Below, in pieces: positions 54,931 to 64,000 of a DNA stretch of 64,000 bases. The first letter of the stretch is position 1. Each line of letters begins with the position of its first letter. The stretch is taken from positions 113,524,001-113,588,000 of the forward strand of contig CM059431.1 of NCBI GenBank assembly GCA_030390025.1, written 5' to 3'. The notes beneath the pieces are model-generated. The model had not been told where the DNA came from. It did no database searches and saw only the letters and a program-made list of their open reading frames with translations. The DNA comes from Squalus acanthias (Eukaryota). A program made the position numbers and the translations under genes.

Positions 54931-56339
54931 AGTTGGAAAAATTGTATTAATAAATAGAAGTTTCAGTTTGAAGGAATATAAGGGTAATTCTAGTGAGGGT
55001 CCATTCCAGGCGCGGAACCTTGCTAGATTGGAAGGCAGTTCGCAGAATCAGCTCTATAGTGTTAAGTGCTCTATTTGTAACCTGCACTCGCATTAAGCAA
55101 GGCTCTGCACACTGTAGAATGTACCCTAAAGTATCAACCATCATATTTCACAGAGCCATGTTCATTTAGTTAATTTCTACATGCCAGACCAAAAATGTAG
55201 AATTGCATCTTCTTAAAAATGCCCAGTTAGACATTAACGTGGTTCATTGTACTGTGGAGAATATGGTTAGTAGCAACAACAGCTATTCTGCAGGATTTAG
55301 TTGCTATGTTGGTGATGGTTCATTAAAAATTTAATCATTATTCCCTTCTGAATCAATGGTTCCGTGCTAGTATGGACTTTGAAGAAATGCTATAACATAT
55401 TAAAATGATGTTAAGAAAATGTGATTTGTCTATAATGCTGTGGGAAATGATCACTTGCATTTCAGTCTTACTATGCTCTGGCATGCATACATTGTGAGCT
55501 CATAGAGAGCTACTGAATTAAAACTGCTCTAAAAACTGAAGTGTGAATGGTGACATTGGCAAGATATATTAATGATTTAATACCAGCATGCCTTACTTCA
55601 TACAGTCAATGAATCATACACTTCCTTTACATAATTTTTAAGTTTAGTGCTACTTTTCCCACAACAGAAAATACAGTGGATGATTAGGAAATAGTGCCTC
55701 GCTCAACAGAATTCATTATGGGTCTCTAAGTTACTTCTGGTTAAGCCTGATGAATATATCCTGGATCTGGATCAGAGATCTTATTTTTTCAGGAACTGCA
55801 ATAGCTTGGCATAGGCCAAACTCCTCGAACTCCAGGCCATGGCCAAGGTTTCATTTCTTCCACTAGCCTTCCCCCCTAAGATTAAGCTGGTTCGCACCTC
55901 AGCCAGTTTTTTTTTGCCCAGCTGGCTATGTTGTACCTTGTAGATTCACCTCCTATTTGTTCTAAATGTATTATTCCTCTGAAATTCTTGCCTTCATTCT
56001 TGGACTATTGTTATTTCTGTACCAATTTCCTTGATGATCATCCTTTCCCACTAGGGAAGGACATTCTCTGGTACTATCAGTTAGTAATTCTATCTTGAAG
56101 ACTATTGTTCCCTTCTACTGTACTCTCAGACTCTCCTGCGATACTTGCTGACAGTGCCATTTGAGCAGAAAAAGCCCTTTAAGAAATAGCTGTTCTAATT
56201 GTGGTAATTAAATACTTGAAGGGGAAAAAGAGCAGGGGTGTGGGTCTAATCTAATAAGGAGGAGGGATATTGGTCCCTGTTGCTGTTCTGAAGATCGTAC
56301 AACTTCAAGTTTAGGATGATGAAAGGATGCATGAAGCAT

Positions 56340-56950
56340 CCTTGAGTACAAAAGTAGAGAAGTTATGCTGAATCTTTATAAAGCGCTGGTTAGGCCACAA
56401 CTGGAGTATTGTGTCCAGTTCTGGTCACCACACTTTAGGAAGGATGTGAAGGCACTTGAGAGGGTGCAGAGGAGATTTACCAGAATGGTTCCGGGGATGG
56501 GGGATCTTAGTTACAAGGACAGGTTGGAGAAGCTGGATTTGCTTTCATTAGAGCAAAGGAAGTTAAGGGGTGATTTGATAGAGATGGACAAGATTATGAC
56601 GGGTTTGGATAGGCTAGACGGGGAAAGGCTGTTCCCACTAGTTAATGGTACAAGGACTAGGGGACGCAGAATTAAGGTTTTGGGCAAGAGATACAGGGGG
56701 AAAGTGAGGAAAATCTTTTTTACGCAGCGAGTGGTGATGACCTGGAACTCGCTGCCGACGGAAGTGGTGGAAGTGGAGACACTCAATGCTTTCAAGGGGA
56801 GATTGGATAGGCACTTGAGGGAAATAAACTTACAGGGCTACGGGGATAGAGCGGGGAAATTGGACTGACTGGATTGCTCCACAGAGAGCGGCACGGACTC
56901 GATGGGCTGAATGGCCTCCTTCTGTGCCGTTATGACTTTATGACTCTATG
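56340..56950 (+). mobile_element. CR1 LINE 3' fragment
   Basis: ORF 56365-56868 plus 3' UTR and (tatgactc)-type tail. Confidence 0.9.
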
Positions 56951-56956
56951 AAGCAT

Positions 56957-57285
56957 TGAGAGTGATTTTACTCCTACACGCCCGGATGGGTGGGCAATTA
57001 AAATGCCCTGGATTACTTATCGGCCAGGAAGCCGCCTGGATCATGACGTGTCTGATTTTAACCTGTTCTTCTGAGTGGGCAGCAAAGGCACCCACCTGGA
57101 GCCGGCAGGGTCCTTCTTTAAATATGCTAATTGGGGTCCGATGATGTCAATCGGACCCCGAAGGCTTTTTAACTCAGGCCTGAGCGGGGAAGCTGCTGCA
57201 GTTTTCCTTCCAGGCTGATGCAGGTCAGAAGAGGAGCGGGATGTGAAGGGGCCTTGAAAAGTAAGTTTTTAACATTTTTCTTGGG
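56957..57285. mobile_element. Partial MITE (octamer/hairpin family)
   Basis: Homologous to 20006-20400; hairpin at 57133-57159. Confidence 0.6.
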
Positions 57286-57892
57286 GAGAAATGGGGAAGG
57301 GTTAATATGTCTTGTTGATGGATACGAAATATTGTCAATGACAGGTGGGAAACATGTTTATTGGGAAAAAATCACTAAACTGAGGTTTCAAATGACAAAA
57401 AAGCCAAAGAATTTCAGTGAAACAGTTACATTCATCACTGCAAAGAATTACTGATTGAGCATTTCCCACGGTCAGCTAATATAACTGGGTAGCAAATTCA
57501 TAAAGTACTTCAAGATGTTTAGTAGAAATCACTATATAAGGCAGTTTAACGCAAGAATTATTACTTACCAACACACACAATGGTGCAGCGTGAATAACAT
57601 AATTATTATTTTACCTTACAGAAGAATTTTTTTTTATATATTGTACCAGATGTGTGAAATTTGGACCAGTGGTTCACAGGTCTCGCATACCACTATTGGA
57701 GCTATTCCAGAATGCTAATGTGCGTGCCCCAGTTCCTTCACCCAAATTGATTATGACCCACTTTCTTCCCAGCTGCTCTTTCTCTTTTAAGTCAGTTAAT
57801 TCCTCGTCTGCATACATCTGTCCTCCTTCTGGTCTGTTGCTCTCTCCTTCTCAGGACTCTGTTCCTCTTTATTGGTGCTCCTTTCTCCATTC

Positions 57893-58358
57893 TGGTTCAC
57901 CAGACTGATTCCTGGGATGGGGGGATTGTCCTATGAGGAGACTCGGCCTATATTCCCTAGAATTTAGAAGAATGAGAGAGGATCTCATTGAAACATATAA
58001 AATTCTTTACAGGGCTTGACAGGATAGATGCTGGGAGGATGTTTCCCTTGGCTGGGGAGTCTAGAACTAAGGGTCATAGTCTCAGAATAAGGGGTCGGCC
58101 ATTTAGGACTGAGATGAGGAGAAATTTCTTCACTCAAAGGGTTGTGAATCTTTGGAAATCTCTACCCCATAGGGCTGTGGCTGCTTAGTCGTTGAGTATA
58201 TTCAAGATAGGGATCGATAGATTTTTGAATATTAAGGGTATCAAGGGATATGGGGATAGTGCGGGAAGGTGGAGTTGAGGTAGAAGATCAGCCATGATCT
58301 TATTGAAGGCCCAAAGGGCCAAATGGCCTACTCCTGCTCCAATTTCTTATGTTCTTAT
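57893..58358 (+). mobile_element. CR1 LINE 3' fragment
   Basis: Same subfamily as 6722-7137. Confidence 0.9.
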
Positions 58359-58688
58359 GATATCTACTCTGCTTTTCTTCATGGAGTTCCTCTGTATAAA
58401 TGAAGGGATCTAGATTCATAGATTGAATCGCTAACAATATTTGACATCATACAACCTGTGGCCGATTTTCACCCCCACCTCCCCATCGAGTGGGAACAGA
58501 GCAGTAATGGGATGAAACCAGTGGCATGTACCACTCTGTTCCCACCAAGTCCGGGTCACCAAACTTTTGGTTGGGGGCCTTGAAATGGGCAGTTCAGGTG
58601 CCCGCTGGAAACAGTTGTCGGCCTCATTAGTCCATGAATATTAGGGTGCTATGACAACATAGGAACATAGGAGCAGGAGTAAGCCATT

Positions 58689-59980
58689 AACATAGAAACA
58701 TAGAAACATAGAAGATAGGAGCAGGAGTAGGCCATTCGGCCCCTCGAGCCTATTCCGCCATTTAATGAGATCATGGCTGATCATCCAAATTCAGTACCCT
58801 GTCCCTGCTTTCTCCCCATATCCCTTGATCCCTTTAGCCTTAAGAAATATATCTAACTCCTTCTTGAATATATTTAATGAATTGGCCTCAACTGCCTTCT
58901 GTGGTAGAGAATTCCACAGGTTCACCACTCTCTGGGTGAAGAAATTTCTCCTCATCTCAGTCCTAAATGGCTTACCCCTTATCCTTAGACTGTGACCCCT
59001 GGTTCTGGACTCCCCCGCCATCGGGAACATCCTTCCTGCATCTAGTCTGTCTAGTCCTGTTAGAATTTTATAAGTTTCAATGAGATCCCCTCTCATTCTT
59101 CTAAACTCTAGCGAATATAAGCCTAATCGACCCAATCTCTCCTCATACGTCATTCCTGCCATCCCAGGTATCAGTCTGGTGAATCTTCGCTGCTCTCTCT
59201 CCATGGCAAGAACATCCTTCCTCAGATAAGGTGACCAAAACTGCACACAATACTCAAGGTGTGGTTTCACCAAGGCCCTGTACAACTGCAGCAAGACATC
59301 CTTGCTCCTGTACTCGAATTCTCTCGCTATGAAGGCCAACATACCATTTGCCTTCTTAACCGCCTGCTGCACTTGCATGCTTACCTTCAGCGACTGGTGC
59401 ACAAGAACACCCAGGTCTCGTTGCACTTCCCTTTTCCCAATCTATTGCCGTTCAGATAATAATCTGTCTTCCTGTTTTTGCCACCGAAGTGGATAACGTC
59501 GCATTTATCCACATTATACTGCATTTGCCATGCATCTGCCCAATCACCCAACCTGTCCAAATCATACTGGAGTTTCTCTGCATCCTCCTCACAGCACACA
59601 CGCCCACCCAGCTTTGTGTCGTCTGCAAACTTGGAGATATTACATCTAGTTCCCTCGTCTAGATCATTAATATATTTTGTGAATAGCTGGGGTCCTAGCA
59701 CCGATCCCTGCGGTACCCCACTAGTCACTGCCTGCCACTCAGAAAAAGACCCGTTTATTCCAACTCTTTGCTTCCTGTCTGCCAACCAGTTCTCTATCCA
59801 AGACAGTACCTTACCCCCAATCCCATGTGCTTTTACTTTGCACGCTAATCTCTTATGCAGGACCTTATCGAAAGCCTTCTGAAAGTCCAAATACACCACA
59901 TCCACTGGTTCTCCCTTATCTATTCTACCAGTTACATCCTCAAAAAATTCCAGTAGATTAGTCAGGCATGATTTACCTTT
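58689..59980 (-). mobile_element. 5'-truncated CR1 LINE
   Basis: ORFs 59387-59905 and 58791-59426; same subfamily as 49795-52590; (catagaaa)n tail. Confidence 0.93.
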
Positions 59981-60522
59981 TCAACGATTTGTGTACGTAC
60001 ACCCCCAGGTCTCTCTGTTCCTGCACCCCCTTTAAAATTGTACCATTTAGTTCATATTGCCTCTCCTCGTTCTTCCGACCAAAATGTATCACTTCACACT
60101 TCTCTGCGTTAAATTTTATCTGCCACATGTCTGCTCATTTCACCAGTTTATGTTCTCCTGAAGTCTGTCACTATTCACTACTTTTCCAAGCTTTGTGTCA
60201 TCTGCAAACTTTGAAATGATGCCCTGTATACCCAAGTCCCGGTCATTAATATATATCAAAAAGAGCAGTGGTCCCAACACTGACCCCTGGGGAACATCAC
60301 TGCACACTTCACTCCAGTCTGAAAAACAGCCCGTCACTGCTACTCACTGCTTTCTGTCCCTTTGCCAATTTCGTATCCACGCAGCCGCTGCCTCTTTTGT
60401 TCACAAGCCTATTATGTGGTACTTTGTGAAACGCCTTTTGAAAATCCATATACACAACATCAACCGCACTACCCTCATCCTCTGTTACTTCATCAAAGAA
60501 CTCGATCAAGTTAGTCAAACAC

Positions 60523-62209
60523 CACCACCCTCCTCCGCCTGGCTGAACTTGTTCTCACATTGAACAACTTCTCCTTTGACTCCACTCACTTCCTCCAAAT
60601 CAAAGGTGTTGCTATGGGTACCCGCATGGGTCCTAGCTATGCCTGCCTTTTCGTGGGATATGTGGAACACTCTTTGTTCCAGTCCTACTCAGGTCCCCTC
60701 CCTCGCCTCTTTTTCTGGTACATTGATGACTGTATCGGTGCCATTTCCTGCTCTCGCCCTGAACTAGAAAATTTCATTCACTTTGCTTCCAATTTCCACC
60801 CTTCCCTCACCTTCACATGGTCCATCTCCGACTCTTCCTTTCCCTTCCTCGACTTCTCCGTCGCCATCTCTGGGGATAGGTTATTGACTAACATTCACTA
60901 CAAGCCCACTGACTCCCACAGCTACCTGGACTACACTTCCTCCCACCCCACCTCCTGCAAGGACTCTATTCCATTCTCCCAGTTTCTCCGTCTCCGCCGC
61001 ATCTGCTCTGACGATGCCACCTTCCATACCAGTGCTTCCGACATGTCTTCCTTTTTCCTCAACCGAGGATTCCCCTCTACTGTGGTTGACACGGCCCTTG
61101 ACCGTGTCCGTTCTATCTCCCGCACTTCTGCCCTGCCCCTCCCTCCCGGAACCACGATAGAGTTCCCCTTGTCCTCACCTTTCACCCCAGCCAGCCTCCG
61201 CATTCAACGGATCATCCTCCGCCATTTCCGCCACCTCCAGCATGATCCCACCACCAAATGCATCTTCCCCTCACCTCCCCTTTCAGCATTCCGTAGGGAC
61301 CACTCCCTCCGCGATACCCTAGTCCACTCCTCTACCACCCCCAGCACTCCTTCCCCTTCGCCCGGCACCTTCCCGTGCAAGCGCAGGAGATGCAACACAT
61401 GCCCTTATACCTCCCCCCTTCCCACTGTCCAGGGCCCCAAACACCCCTTCCAGGTGAAACAGCGATTTACTTGTACTTCTTGCAATTTGGTATACTGTAT
61501 TCGCTGCTCCTCTAGATTGGGGAGACCAAACGCAGATTGGGTGATCGCTTGCGGAACACCTCCGTTCAGTCCGTAAGGGGGATCCCGAGCTTCCGGTTGC
61601 GTGTCACTTTAATTCACCGCTCCATTCCCACTCAGACCTCACCGTCCTCGGCCTCTTGCATTGTTCCACGGAAGCTCGGCATAAGCTCGAGGAACAGCAC
61701 CTCATCTTTCGATTAGGCACTCTACAGCCCTCTGGACTCGACATAGAGTTCAACAATTTCAGATCATAACCTCGGCCCCTATCACATATATATATTTTTT
61801 ATCCACACTTTTTGTTTGTGTCTTTTTTTATTCCCTCCCACATGGCAGCTGTCCTTCGTTCTGCCAGCACAATTCACACTTCATCTAGAGCCATCCTTTG
61901 TTCCTTAACCTGTTCCATTACCACCTCCTCTTGCCTTGAATATCTCTTAATACCTCTTTACTTCTCCTGCCTTCCATCCTATCACTGACCTTCCCTTTTG
62001 TTCTTTCATCCCCTCCCCCATTTCCCAGCCCCTAAACTTGCTTTAAAATCTGTTCCCTTTCCTGCTTTTTTCCAGTTCTGACGAAAGGTCTTCGACCTGA
62101 AACGTTAACTCTGTTTCTCTCTCACAGATGCTGCCTGGCCTGCTGAGTTTTTCCAGCGTTTTCTGTTGTTATTTCAGATTTCCAGCATCCGCAGTATTTT
62201 GCTATTGTA
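60523..62209 (+). mobile_element. 5'-truncated Penelope-like element (RT plus GIY-YIG endonuclease)
   Basis: GVAMGTRMGPSYA, WYIDD, YKPTD, CKRRRCNTC linker, NLVYCIRC, GETKRRL and frameshifted EHL...VACHFN...EQHLIFRLGTLQPSGL to a stop at 61767-61769; 12-bp TSD ttagtcaaacac (60511-60522, 62210-62221). Confidence 0.93.
62074..62110 (+). ncRNA. Minimal type I hammerhead ribozyme motif in the Penelope 3' terminus
   Basis: AGUU-CUGACGA-A-AGGUC-uuc-GACCU-GAAA-CGUU-AACU, with palindromic AACGUU. Confidence 0.8.
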
Positions 62210-62437
62210 TTAGTCAAACACGATTTGCCTTTAACAAATCTGTGCTGGCTTTCATTAATTAACCCCATACTTTTCCAAGTGCTAGTTAATTTTGTCCCAG
62301 ATTAATGTCTCGAACAGTTTCCCCACTTATGCTGCCCGGCCTGCAGTTGCCGGGTTTAACCCTCTGCCTGTAGAAAGCCTTGGCATTGAGCTTTAGGCAC
62401 TGTCCGTGCCTGGCTCCCAGCCCAGCCCGTCCTTTAC

Positions 62438-62781
62438 CTGGATCCGCTCATTGTGGTCCACCAGGAGGAAGCTGCTGCCAGCCTGGGGCTGGAACAGTGC
62501 CTGGGGCTGGGCCCGCTCCCCCTGCCCCTCCGCTGGCCCGGGCCCGGGCCCGGGTGGGTAGTTCTCCAGCCGGTGTTTGCGCCGGTTGCTGTGGGCGCGG
62601 CGCTGGCAGTCGTTGCGGACGTTGAGTTTGCAGGAGTGACAGCGGGCGGCGGCGGGGAGCGGGCCCGGTCCCAGGCCCGGCCCCCGGGCACTGGTCGCAG
62701 CGCGGGCTGTAGCCGGGGCCCAGGCGACTCCGCTGGTGCTGCTGGAGCCGCGTCTGTCGGTGCAGCTCCCGCCCCTCGAAC
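62438..62781 (-). pseudogene. ZFYVE1: Orphan fragment of a ZFYVE1 (DFCP1)-like N-terminal coding exon
   Basis: ELHRQTRLQQHQRSRLGPGYSPRCDQC, then after a 1-nt frameshift ARCHSCKLNVRNDCQRRAHSNRRKH...SFLLVDHNERIQ followed by CAG|GTAAAG. This parallels human ZFYVE1 as I recall it (ELHRQERLRNHERIRLKPGHVPYCDLC...VRCQTCKINLCLECQKRTHS...SFLLVDENEEIQ). No start codon and no other exons found. Confidence 0.82.
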
Positions 62782-62784
62782 CTT

Positions 62785-63050
62785 TCACAACCCTTAACAC
62801 CCTTGCCTAACAAAAATCTATCAATCTCAGTTTTGACATTTTCAATTGACCTAGTTGAAGATTTTTGGGGAGAGTTCCAGATTTTCACTACCCCTTATGT
62901 GAAGAAGTGCTTCCTGACATCACCCCTGAACAGCCTAGTTCTAAATTTAAAGTTATGCCCCCTTGTTTTGGGCTCCCCCCACCAGAGGAAATTGTTTCTC
63001 TCTCTCTACTCTATCAACTCCTTTAATCATCTTAAACACCTCACTGAGAT
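62785..63050 (-). mobile_element. CR1 C-terminal fragment abutting the ZFYVE1-like piece
   Basis: KIWNSPQK...KTEIDRFLLGKGVKG; the 3' UTR is missing. Confidence 0.8.
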
Positions 63051-64000
63051 CATCAATAATAATAACAAAAATTGGGTAGCATATGCCATGCACGCTCGGC
63101 CCATCAGTACGTGGCATAGGGCAGCCTCACCAATGGTCCTTAAAGGGACTGCTGCAGACCACTCAGAAAAAAGTAGAAAGTAAAAAGCAGAAAAAAAGAT
63201 TTTAAATGATTTTCTTGGGAATACATGACCATTAATGCAAATATCAACCTAACCCCCCACTTCCGCTCCAGAGCCCTCCCCTGGGATCACCTCGTTCCAC
63301 GCGCCCCACCCCCCAACTTACCCACACTCTGTGGTGGAGCTGTCAGATTTCCCGTCCCCTTGTTCCGCTTGCCTTCAGCAGGAAGGACGCAGTCAGTTGC
63401 AAAATCGACCCCGCTGTCTCACCAATGGCACCAACTCAACCACCCTTTCGCTTCTCAGCACGTTGCCTTAACGATTATAATGGAAAATTACTACTGTCAT
63501 TTTAATTGATCAATAATTATTAAAGTAGTTGCACAAAGCTATTCGGTATGAACAAACTTCATGTAGGAACAGCAATAAGTGGTAGAAAATGGAAGTGTCA
63601 CGCCATGGTCAAAATAATCCATTCACATCTGTCTCATGAGTTTGAGTTCTGTAGCATTACTCCAAATAATAATTTATTTTCCACATCATACGCGTTCACT
63701 GCCAAGTATCCGTTGGTTAACATCTGTGTAGTTTGGAATTTTCTGGATAATGTCACCATTTCTGGTAGATTGGGATACAGCACCTTATTGCATGATCTAG
63801 CAATCCACAAAAAACTTGGTGGGTTAAGCCATTAGAGACATATACTGAGATTTAATTGCTGTGTTACGAATTCTGTATTTAGTTACAGTAATTGAAATGA
63901 AATCTTTTAACTTGCGGAACTATTATGAAGTGATAGTGATCACCAGTAACAGTGCAGTCCTTGGCCCAGCTGGCTGAACTCTAATTTTATTTTTCTAGCG

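Follow-up and report, generated by a model that had tools for sequence, protein, structure and literature searches.

A 4,080-bp insert of unspliced ZFYVE1 exon–intron sequence and a CR1-like LINE in Squalus acanthias: a probable template-switch retrocopy

INTRODUCTION

Close to one end of the window analysed here (the whole 64,000-nucleotide stretch of contig CM059431.1 from Squalus acanthias), the minus strand of a very GC-rich island encodes Cys/His-rich motifs that run into a splice donor, with LINE sequence on both sides. Does this island belong to a working gene, and if not, how did a coding exon with its donor come to lie between retroelements? An initial annotation, made from the letters alone, had recognised an exon of ZFYVE1, described it as a fragment of ∼345 bp held between two CR1 junctions, and proposed either template switching of a CR1 reverse transcriptase onto unspliced pre-mRNA or a capture of DNA during break repair. 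We followed these proposals by searching the assembly, aligning the locus with its parent gene and with the LINE families concerned, and comparing it with sequencing reads.

RESULTS

Anatomy of the locus

Read along the minus strand, the locus is made up of the parts below, given in window positions with the basis of each assignment in brackets.

62771..63054, minus strand: X-left, a 5'-truncated piece from the 3' region of an old CR1-like LINE (X), the insertion target (family alignment)
62438..62770, minus strand: B, exon part, codon 57 (position 2) through the final base of ZFYVE1 exon 1 (alignment to parent)
62657..62658, minus strand: site of an 8-bp deletion relative to the parent, with frame shift (alignments to parent)
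62615..62617, minus strand: CGC (Arg) against parental TGC (Cys111), a zinc-binding B-box cysteine (alignment)
62432..62437, minus strand: retained splice donor GTAAAG (donor identical in the parent on contig C381 and in a further copy on contig C9)
59980..62437, minus strand: B, intron part, the 5' stretch of ZFYVE1 intron 1 (colinearity with C381)
58691..59981, minus strand: Y, a young 5'-truncated CR1-like LINE, the LINE half of the putative chimera (39 genome copies)
58656..58690, minus strand: X-right, the missing 3' tail of X (alignment to the family tail)

A truncated and decaying ZFYVE1 exon

GC content is 0.72–0.78 across 62400–62799, and the minus strand of this island reads ...ELHRQTRLQQHQRSRLGPGYSPRCDQCPG in one frame and ...RCHSCKLNVRNDCQRRAHSNRRKH...SSFLLVDHNERIQ in another, up to CAG/GTAAAG; the last exon base is 62438 and the donor GT occupies 62437–62436, as had been seen at the outset. 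The encoded peptide is rich in Cys and His and lies in two frame-shifted pieces. Its likeness to ZFYVE1, noted at the outset, is borne out by the paralogous exon on contig C381, the peptide of which matches 25 proteins, 20 named ZFYVE1 or close variants and five unnamed or generically named, with the best match to a 792-aa protein of Pristiophorus japonicus (P0003; 74% identity, E 7e-67). Residues 81–126 of the C381 exon match the Pfam ANCHR-like B-box (E 4.9e-10), whereas no Pfam domain is found on the exon pieces of the window.

A DNA search of the 3.7-Gb assembly places the island at three positions: the window contig (C7), an 89% copy on C381 and a 53-bp trace on C9. When the genome was searched with P0003, an intact ZFYVE1 was found on C381, an unplaced contig of 91.8 kb, in the form of 11 exon matches on the minus strand (56667 to 799) that together span residues 1–792; the window contig matches residues 62–180 only. 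Since all other exons lie on C381 and residues 62–180 stand alone on the window contig, the functional gene is that of C381, and what the window contains is a fragment. The first coding exon of C381 is complete, with 164 codons, an ATG, the same donor, the cysteine in question and 8 bp more than the window. Within the window plus 10 kb, residues 62–180 are likewise the sole match of P0003 in tblastn, and no other ZFYVE1 exon is found within 72 kb, which agrees with the earlier impression that further exons are lacking here. The window copy is not a functional ZFYVE1/DFCP1 gene, a complete frame with all exons being absent. For annotation this means that the window should be labelled a pseudogene fragment and the real ZFYVE1 sought on the unplaced contig.

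Compared with its parent, the exon part carries 13 substitutions in 314 positions (4.1%; eight synonymous and five non-synonymous) and indels of –8, +6 and +12 bp, of which the +6 and +12 keep the frame. The frame shift is the 8-bp deletion relative to C381, between 62658 and 62657; it does not arise, as had been proposed, from a slip of 1 nt in the run of C at 62681–62685, where window and parent agree. The Arg observed where Cys was expected is genuine: TGC to CGC removes Cys111, so that the window reads NVRNDC against NVCTDC in C381 and NVCADC in P0003, and the zinc-binding Cys is present at this site in C381, in P0003 and in the C9 copy. The missing start codon is also confirmed, as the copy begins at codon 57 position 2, 170 nt past the ATG. 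Judged by its sequence, the window fragment is a dead gene fragment that is predicted to have no function of its own: without promoter, without ATG, frame-shifted and with Cys replaced by Arg.

Two further pieces of ZFYVE1-like sequence were seen elsewhere in the assembly. An older third copy of the whole of exon 1 lies at C9:30789401-30789940 on the minus strand (L015 1501-2040) and reads from ATG (MSGQS...) through ...EEIQ/GTAAAG, with 63% nucleotide identity to C381 and three in-frame stops; homology of this copy past the exon is not recognisable, and it may be an old pseudogene or a paralogue remnant. On a short unplaced contig, a frame of 131 aa stands open in L019 (C2916:1081-1278, plus strand), 61% identical to ZFYVE1 residues 555–620; it could be a further stray fragment or an exon of a paralogue.

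The copy continues through 2.4 kb of intron 1

Window positions 59980–62772 are colinear with C381 51956–56500, and B runs from codon 57 of exon 1 via the donor through 2.4 kb of intron 1. The fragment is, in fact, a copy of 2.8 kb of exon 1 plus intron 1 and not a piece of ∼345 bp between two CR1 junctions. That intron sequence is retained after the donor proves right, the region 62367–62437 matching the start of the C381 intron, and an ordinary processed pseudogene was justly excluded in view of the donor and the 2.4 kb of intron. A CR1-type reverse transcriptase reading (…PGNCRPGSISGETVRDIN…) does begin ∼70 nt past the donor, at about 62367, where it had been located. The same reverse transcriptase sequence, however, also follows the donor in C381; being present in the parent, it belongs to the parental intron and marks no fusion, so that its supposed role as a same-orientation fusion partner falls away. 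The last parental CR1 reverse transcriptase fragment in B ends ...DLGVYVHKSLK at 59980.

Substitution divergence of B from the parent is 3.0% (21/701) in the distal intron and 4.5% in the proximal intron, and 3.0–4.9% overall on a substitution-only count; BLAST identity, at 88–93%, would by itself have made B look older than Y. Within intron 1 of the parent, C381:52670-55969 holds two units of 1.45 kb with 86% identity to each other; an inverted piece of 320 bp separates them and is 96% identical to a direct copy nearby. B carries a single 1.45-kb unit, which is a mosaic (informative sites 116, 54 and 40, mixed in pattern); this pattern has no bearing on the mechanism. Stretches in which the C381 units are 97–98% alike suggest gene conversion. 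As the two units are more diverged from each other (86%) than the window is from the parent, an extra step is needed to account for the single unit, be it a jump over one unit while copying, a collapse at a later time or gene conversion in the parent.

It was also observed that window 60800–61700, inside the copied intron, has a GC content of 0.55–0.60 and a strong strand skew, being G-rich on the minus strand. A 353-codon plus-strand open frame lies at 60515–61573 in the copied intron; it has no Pfam match and is probably open by composition only.

Two LINEs of different age

On its upstream side B is bordered by X-left, which is 86–89% identical to 39 scored genome copies of 5264 candidates. 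Between the two CGGAAC repeats of X-left, 62 nt are missing, a deletion private to this copy; past it X-left reads AGGTTCGAGGGGC and breaks off, its last letters at 62771 being ...CGAGGGGC. The family sequence continues from there for ∼100 bp to ...GGCTCGAGGGGCTGAATGGCC...CCTATGTTCCTA in 25 of the 29 family copies fetched (the alignment used the first 14 of the 25; L048, L061, L062 and L063 were dropped for interrupted or truncated tails), and at the split it reads GGGGC/TGAATGGCC...CCTATGTTCCTA. On the other side of the insert, the 35 nt after Y (58690 to 58656) read T(T)AATGGCTTACTCCTGCTCCTATGTTCCTATGTT, which is the rest of the family tail, starting TGAATGGC, with one mismatch and from the exact base where X-left stops. 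Among the 39 other Y copies listed, none runs into the X-right sequence. The upstream CR1 piece, which had been taken for a fusion partner, is actually the target, split in two by the insert.

Y extends from the reverse transcriptase at ...KGKSCLTNL to a natural 3' tail that bears the 8-nt repeat (TGTTTCTA)n. Its reverse transcriptase domain matches RVT_1 (E 1.4e-20), and it is 94–98% identical to the 39 genome copies listed, the 3' ends of which fall at 58700–58689, inside the (TGTTTCTA)n run. The three other Y copies that were fetched all extend 5' beyond the junction, so that Y is truly 5'-truncated at this point. The LINE partner is not right beside the donor, as the initial annotation had it, but 2.4 kb further downstream. 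We call X and Y 'CR1-like', a putative label that follows that annotation, the type of tail and motifs; the traits that we checked for it are the reverse transcriptase domain, the 8-nt repeat at the end of Y and the absence of poly(A).

At the border of B and Y the window reads CGTTGAA/AAGGTAAATC, with a 2-nt AA overlap and no filler letters, where the parent reads GATGAAGGTGG and the Y family reads ACAAAAGGTAAATC. In C381 the old CR1 simply continues at the junction site, without Y. No second B/Y junction was found among the 39 other Y copies listed.

B and Y entered as a single unit

B and Y form a single 4,080-bp insert, running on the minus strand from window position 62770 to 58691, within the 3' tail of the older CR1-like LINE X. 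The two halves of X flank B and Y in exact register, and hence B and Y entered together; X, at 86–89% identity to its relatives, is older than the insert. Alignment to the family tail of X shows 0–2 bp lost and none duplicated at the flanks. Between X and B there is an overlap of 1–2 nt (GC). Neither a target-site duplication or direct repeat at the insert borders nor a poly(A) at the insert was found; target-site duplications are often missing from CR1-type insertions. The 3' end of the insert is a natural LINE terminus, a signature of target-primed reverse transcription. It is the nested structure, with X split in two, that allows what would otherwise be an ambiguous gene fragment among repeats to be dated and recognised as the insertion of a single event, and the anatomy of the locus, its parent gene, its entry as one unit and its decay can all be read from the alignments directly.

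Could several independent events have built the same arrangement, with a segmental duplication of the 5' region of ZFYVE1 followed by an unrelated Y insertion and by deletions? Partial gene duplicates are common, and the older exon-1 copy on C9 may be set beside this one. Such a history is nevertheless quite improbable, as it has to contend with X halves in exact register around B and Y with 0–2 bp lost, with B sequence that does not continue past Y, and with the fact that X and Y, which belong to different subfamilies and overlap in LINE coordinates, are not halves of one element.

Simpler rearrangements were tried and rejected one after another. Insertion of Y into a longer B is contradicted by the end of B homology at Y. 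A later landing of B at an X/Y border does not fit, as X lost nothing there, and X and Y as halves of one element split by B fail on their overlapping coordinates and different subfamilies. Unequal homologous recombination between CR1 copies is not in keeping with a B that ends ...VHKSLK and a Y that starts ∼600 bp earlier in the reverse transcriptase, the two not being colinear.

Read support

The read comparison took in four of 24 runs. The window-specific stretch 62398–62530 is matched exactly (133/133) by unitigs from run X1 and from X5, an independent sample of the same organism, while the parent on C381 differs from it by two indels; the copy is therefore real in two samples. A contig of run X1 covering 62501–62718 also lacks the parental 8 bp. 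From a second organism, one contig (X6, 62275–62440) shows six differences and fits the copy or the parent. Run X19, guessed to be RNA, gives zero cover on the unique part of the copy. The junctions at 62770 and 59980 are bridged by none of the contigs listed, and repeats swamp the remainder.

Contigs of run X1 further contain a +6-bp (CCCAGG) allele at 62669 with two T>C differences close by, and at 62719 they lack 10 bp. It seems that the GC-rich dead exon is indel-polymorphic, or that the individual differs from the assembly.

These reads bear on the question whether what we see is simply a genuine first exon of ZFYVE1, or the C381 locus wrongly assembled into the window. The parent does lie on an unplaced contig and the read contigs listed stop short of bridging the junctions. 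Even so, we regard both versions as very unlikely. A real exon would have its nearest companion >72 kb away, with all 11 exon matches on C381, and would be without ATG, frame-shifted and deprived of its Cys; an artefact would hardly leave window-specific unitigs in two samples, and a misjoin would not set the X halves in register.

Neighbouring sequence

Some features around the locus may be recorded here. A repeat of ∼409 bp at window 56342–56750 is 95–96% identical to the best 39 of 3930 candidates and has the look of a SINE-like family that is very young and of high copy number. The 94% match between C381 39261–39611 and window 56342–56691 was considered as a further colinear piece and rejected, for it belongs to this young high-copy repeat (3930 candidates). 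Upstream of X, a GC-richer patch (0.53) on the minus strand at 63280–63460 ends ...CAGAGTGTGG/GTAAGT, which looks like an exon–donor boundary; it has no Rfam match, and ORFs overlapping it have no Pfam match. Rfam gives zero matches over 56000–64000 at E ≤ 0.1, and Pfam gives zero matches for five other ORFs around the locus.

DISCUSSION

How the insert may have formed

Our best reading, to which we assign a probability of roughly 0.55, is that a LINE reverse transcriptase switched from Y RNA to unspliced ZFYVE1 pre-mRNA. Target-primed reverse transcription would have begun on Y RNA at a nick in the tail of X; after 1.3 kb the enzyme would have switched, by way of the AA overlap, to ZFYVE1 pre-mRNA within the old CR1 fragment of intron 1, then copied 2.8 kb upstream and halted in the 77%-GC exon 1, and the end of the cDNA would have been joined to X through the 1–2 nt GC overlap. 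The frame shift would have been gained, and the zinc-binding Cys lost, afterwards. The insert would then be a two-part chimeric retrocopy with 1.3 kb of Y at its 3' side and 2.8 kb of B at its 5' side, and the odds lean slightly towards its being one. Of the two origins proposed at the start, copying of unspliced ZFYVE1 pre-mRNA by a LINE reverse transcriptase is thus the better supported, except that the partner is Y.

Several observations argue for this reading. B and Y share the same sense, and B lies entirely within the ZFYVE1 transcription unit. Chimeras made by template switching are recognised by a 3' part that is a 5'-truncated LINE ending at its natural 3' terminus, by a 5' part that is a host transcript region in the same sense joined without filler, by flanks that become contiguous once the unit is removed, and by a target-site duplication. 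The first three are what we see for Y, B and X, and the last is absent. That the insert ends at the terminus of Y is what target-primed reverse transcription predicts; a DNA duplication would end there only by chance. This evidence is indirect, and it tilts modestly in favour of an RNA template for B and of a switch between templates.

A different RNA-based route would start from a transcript initiated at the ZFYVE1 promoter that read through exon 1, the intron and a sense Y lying in it; the copy would have been truncated in exon 1 and the source allele lost (5' transduction, or promoter read-through). It would yield the same final structure as a template switch, and the 2-nt overlap at the 5' junction of the LINE also suits an ordinary insertion of Y into the intron. 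Promoter co-option by intronic LINEs is, moreover, documented for L1, for example RAP1GDS1/L1PA2 (bioRxiv 10.1101/2025.02.02.635956, in the accessible part of the preprint). We consider this route improbable, however, because it requires an unseen insertion plus a loss, together with an RNA 3' end at the tail of Y inside the intron. C381 carries no Y at the site, so that the source locus is not found, and the region occupies three genome places in all, without any other copy.

With respect to DNA, a free 3' end could have invaded ZFYVE1 DNA at a short homology, been extended by 2.8 kb and rejoined to X, either during Y integration or in the repair of a break in X, by synthesis-dependent or microhomology-mediated means. 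Short overlaps at both junctions (AA between B and Y, GC between X and B) speak for such a patch, and so does the colinearity of B with genomic DNA, intron included; taken by itself, the sequence of B would fit an RNA and a DNA template alike. A patch of this kind leaves unexplained, however, why B has the transcript sense relative to Y and lies within the transcription unit, and it still requires Y integration as a trigger, with an insert that ends at the natural terminus of Y. The original suggestion of DNA-level capture in break repair is consequently weakened by the 3' border of the insert, but it keeps its place as a rival, of low probability.

Age does not help to choose between RNA and DNA models, since the divergence of B is compatible with the 94–98% identity of Y. 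On these figures B (3.0–4.9% diverged) may be as old as Y, both lying within the older X, which suits the proposed course.

Comparison with known chimeras and pseudogenes

Template-switch chimeras of LINEs, arising by one or two jumps and including tripartite ones, are known for L1 and a fungal LINE, according to the accessible text of PMC2104539. The chimeras described there and in the accessible text of PMC4476161 resemble the present insert in that a LINE, truncated 5' but complete to its natural 3' end, has a same-sense copy of a cellular transcript fused directly to its 5' side, the whole being integrated as one unit. Here, by contrast, the LINE is CR1-like, poly(A) and target-site duplication are absent, and the copied RNA would be 2.8 kb of unspliced pre-mRNA with coding exon, donor and intron, whereas the chimeras in those texts contain small RNA or spliced mRNA. 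For CR1, the literature in its accessible part offers one uncharacterised U6/CR1-like candidate from turkey (PMC4476161); subscription papers may hold more.

Closer in their cellular part are the primate mRNA/L1 5' chimeras (n=17, 15 of them in sense, mostly with first exons), as given in the accessible part of bioRxiv 10.1101/2025.02.02.635956. They share with our locus a host first exon in sense upstream of a LINE, and in some of them, too, the parent gene is without the source LINE. Their junctions are often at splice sites, with spliced exons and near-full-length L1, as far as that part of the preprint describes them, in contrast to the unspliced exon, the junction deep in the intron and the short LINE part found here.

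Among pseudogenes, a duplicated partial pseudogene is similar in keeping intron and donor and in being a truncated, decaying piece of a multi-exon gene. The present copy differs from a pseudogene born by segmental duplication in its border, which coincides exactly with the 3' terminus of a LINE, and in its position, as a single unit between the two halves of an older LINE; both point to retrotransposition over DNA duplication. A classical processed pseudogene is likewise a dead, promoterless copy made via RNA (on our best reading, in the present case), but this copy is unspliced and has neither poly(A) nor target-site duplication.

Implications

The insert is less usual in its CR1-like partner, in the unspliced state of the putative template, from which exon, donor and intron were taken, and in its lack of a target-site duplication. 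Whether a CR1-type ('stringent') LINE reverse transcriptase switched in vivo from its own RNA to an unspliced host pre-mRNA is, in our estimate, an even chance. If true, a coding exon with an intact donor would have been carried in this way to another chromosomal position in the genome of a cartilaginous fish. LINE-driven exon shuffling by such switching is documented mainly for L1.

According to a review, CR1 recognises its own RNA and its enzymes depend on the 3' end of that RNA, which limits retrocopies and copying in trans, and the small number of retrocopies in CR1-ruled genomes is usually explained by this requirement (both after the accessible text of PMC5470649). A switch that takes place after priming on Y respects the own-3'-end rule. 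A chimera primed on CR1-like RNA and continued on host pre-mRNA would show a way in which these elements mobilise host sequence even so, and a moved exon with a donor predicted to be usable would be raw material for exon shuffling.
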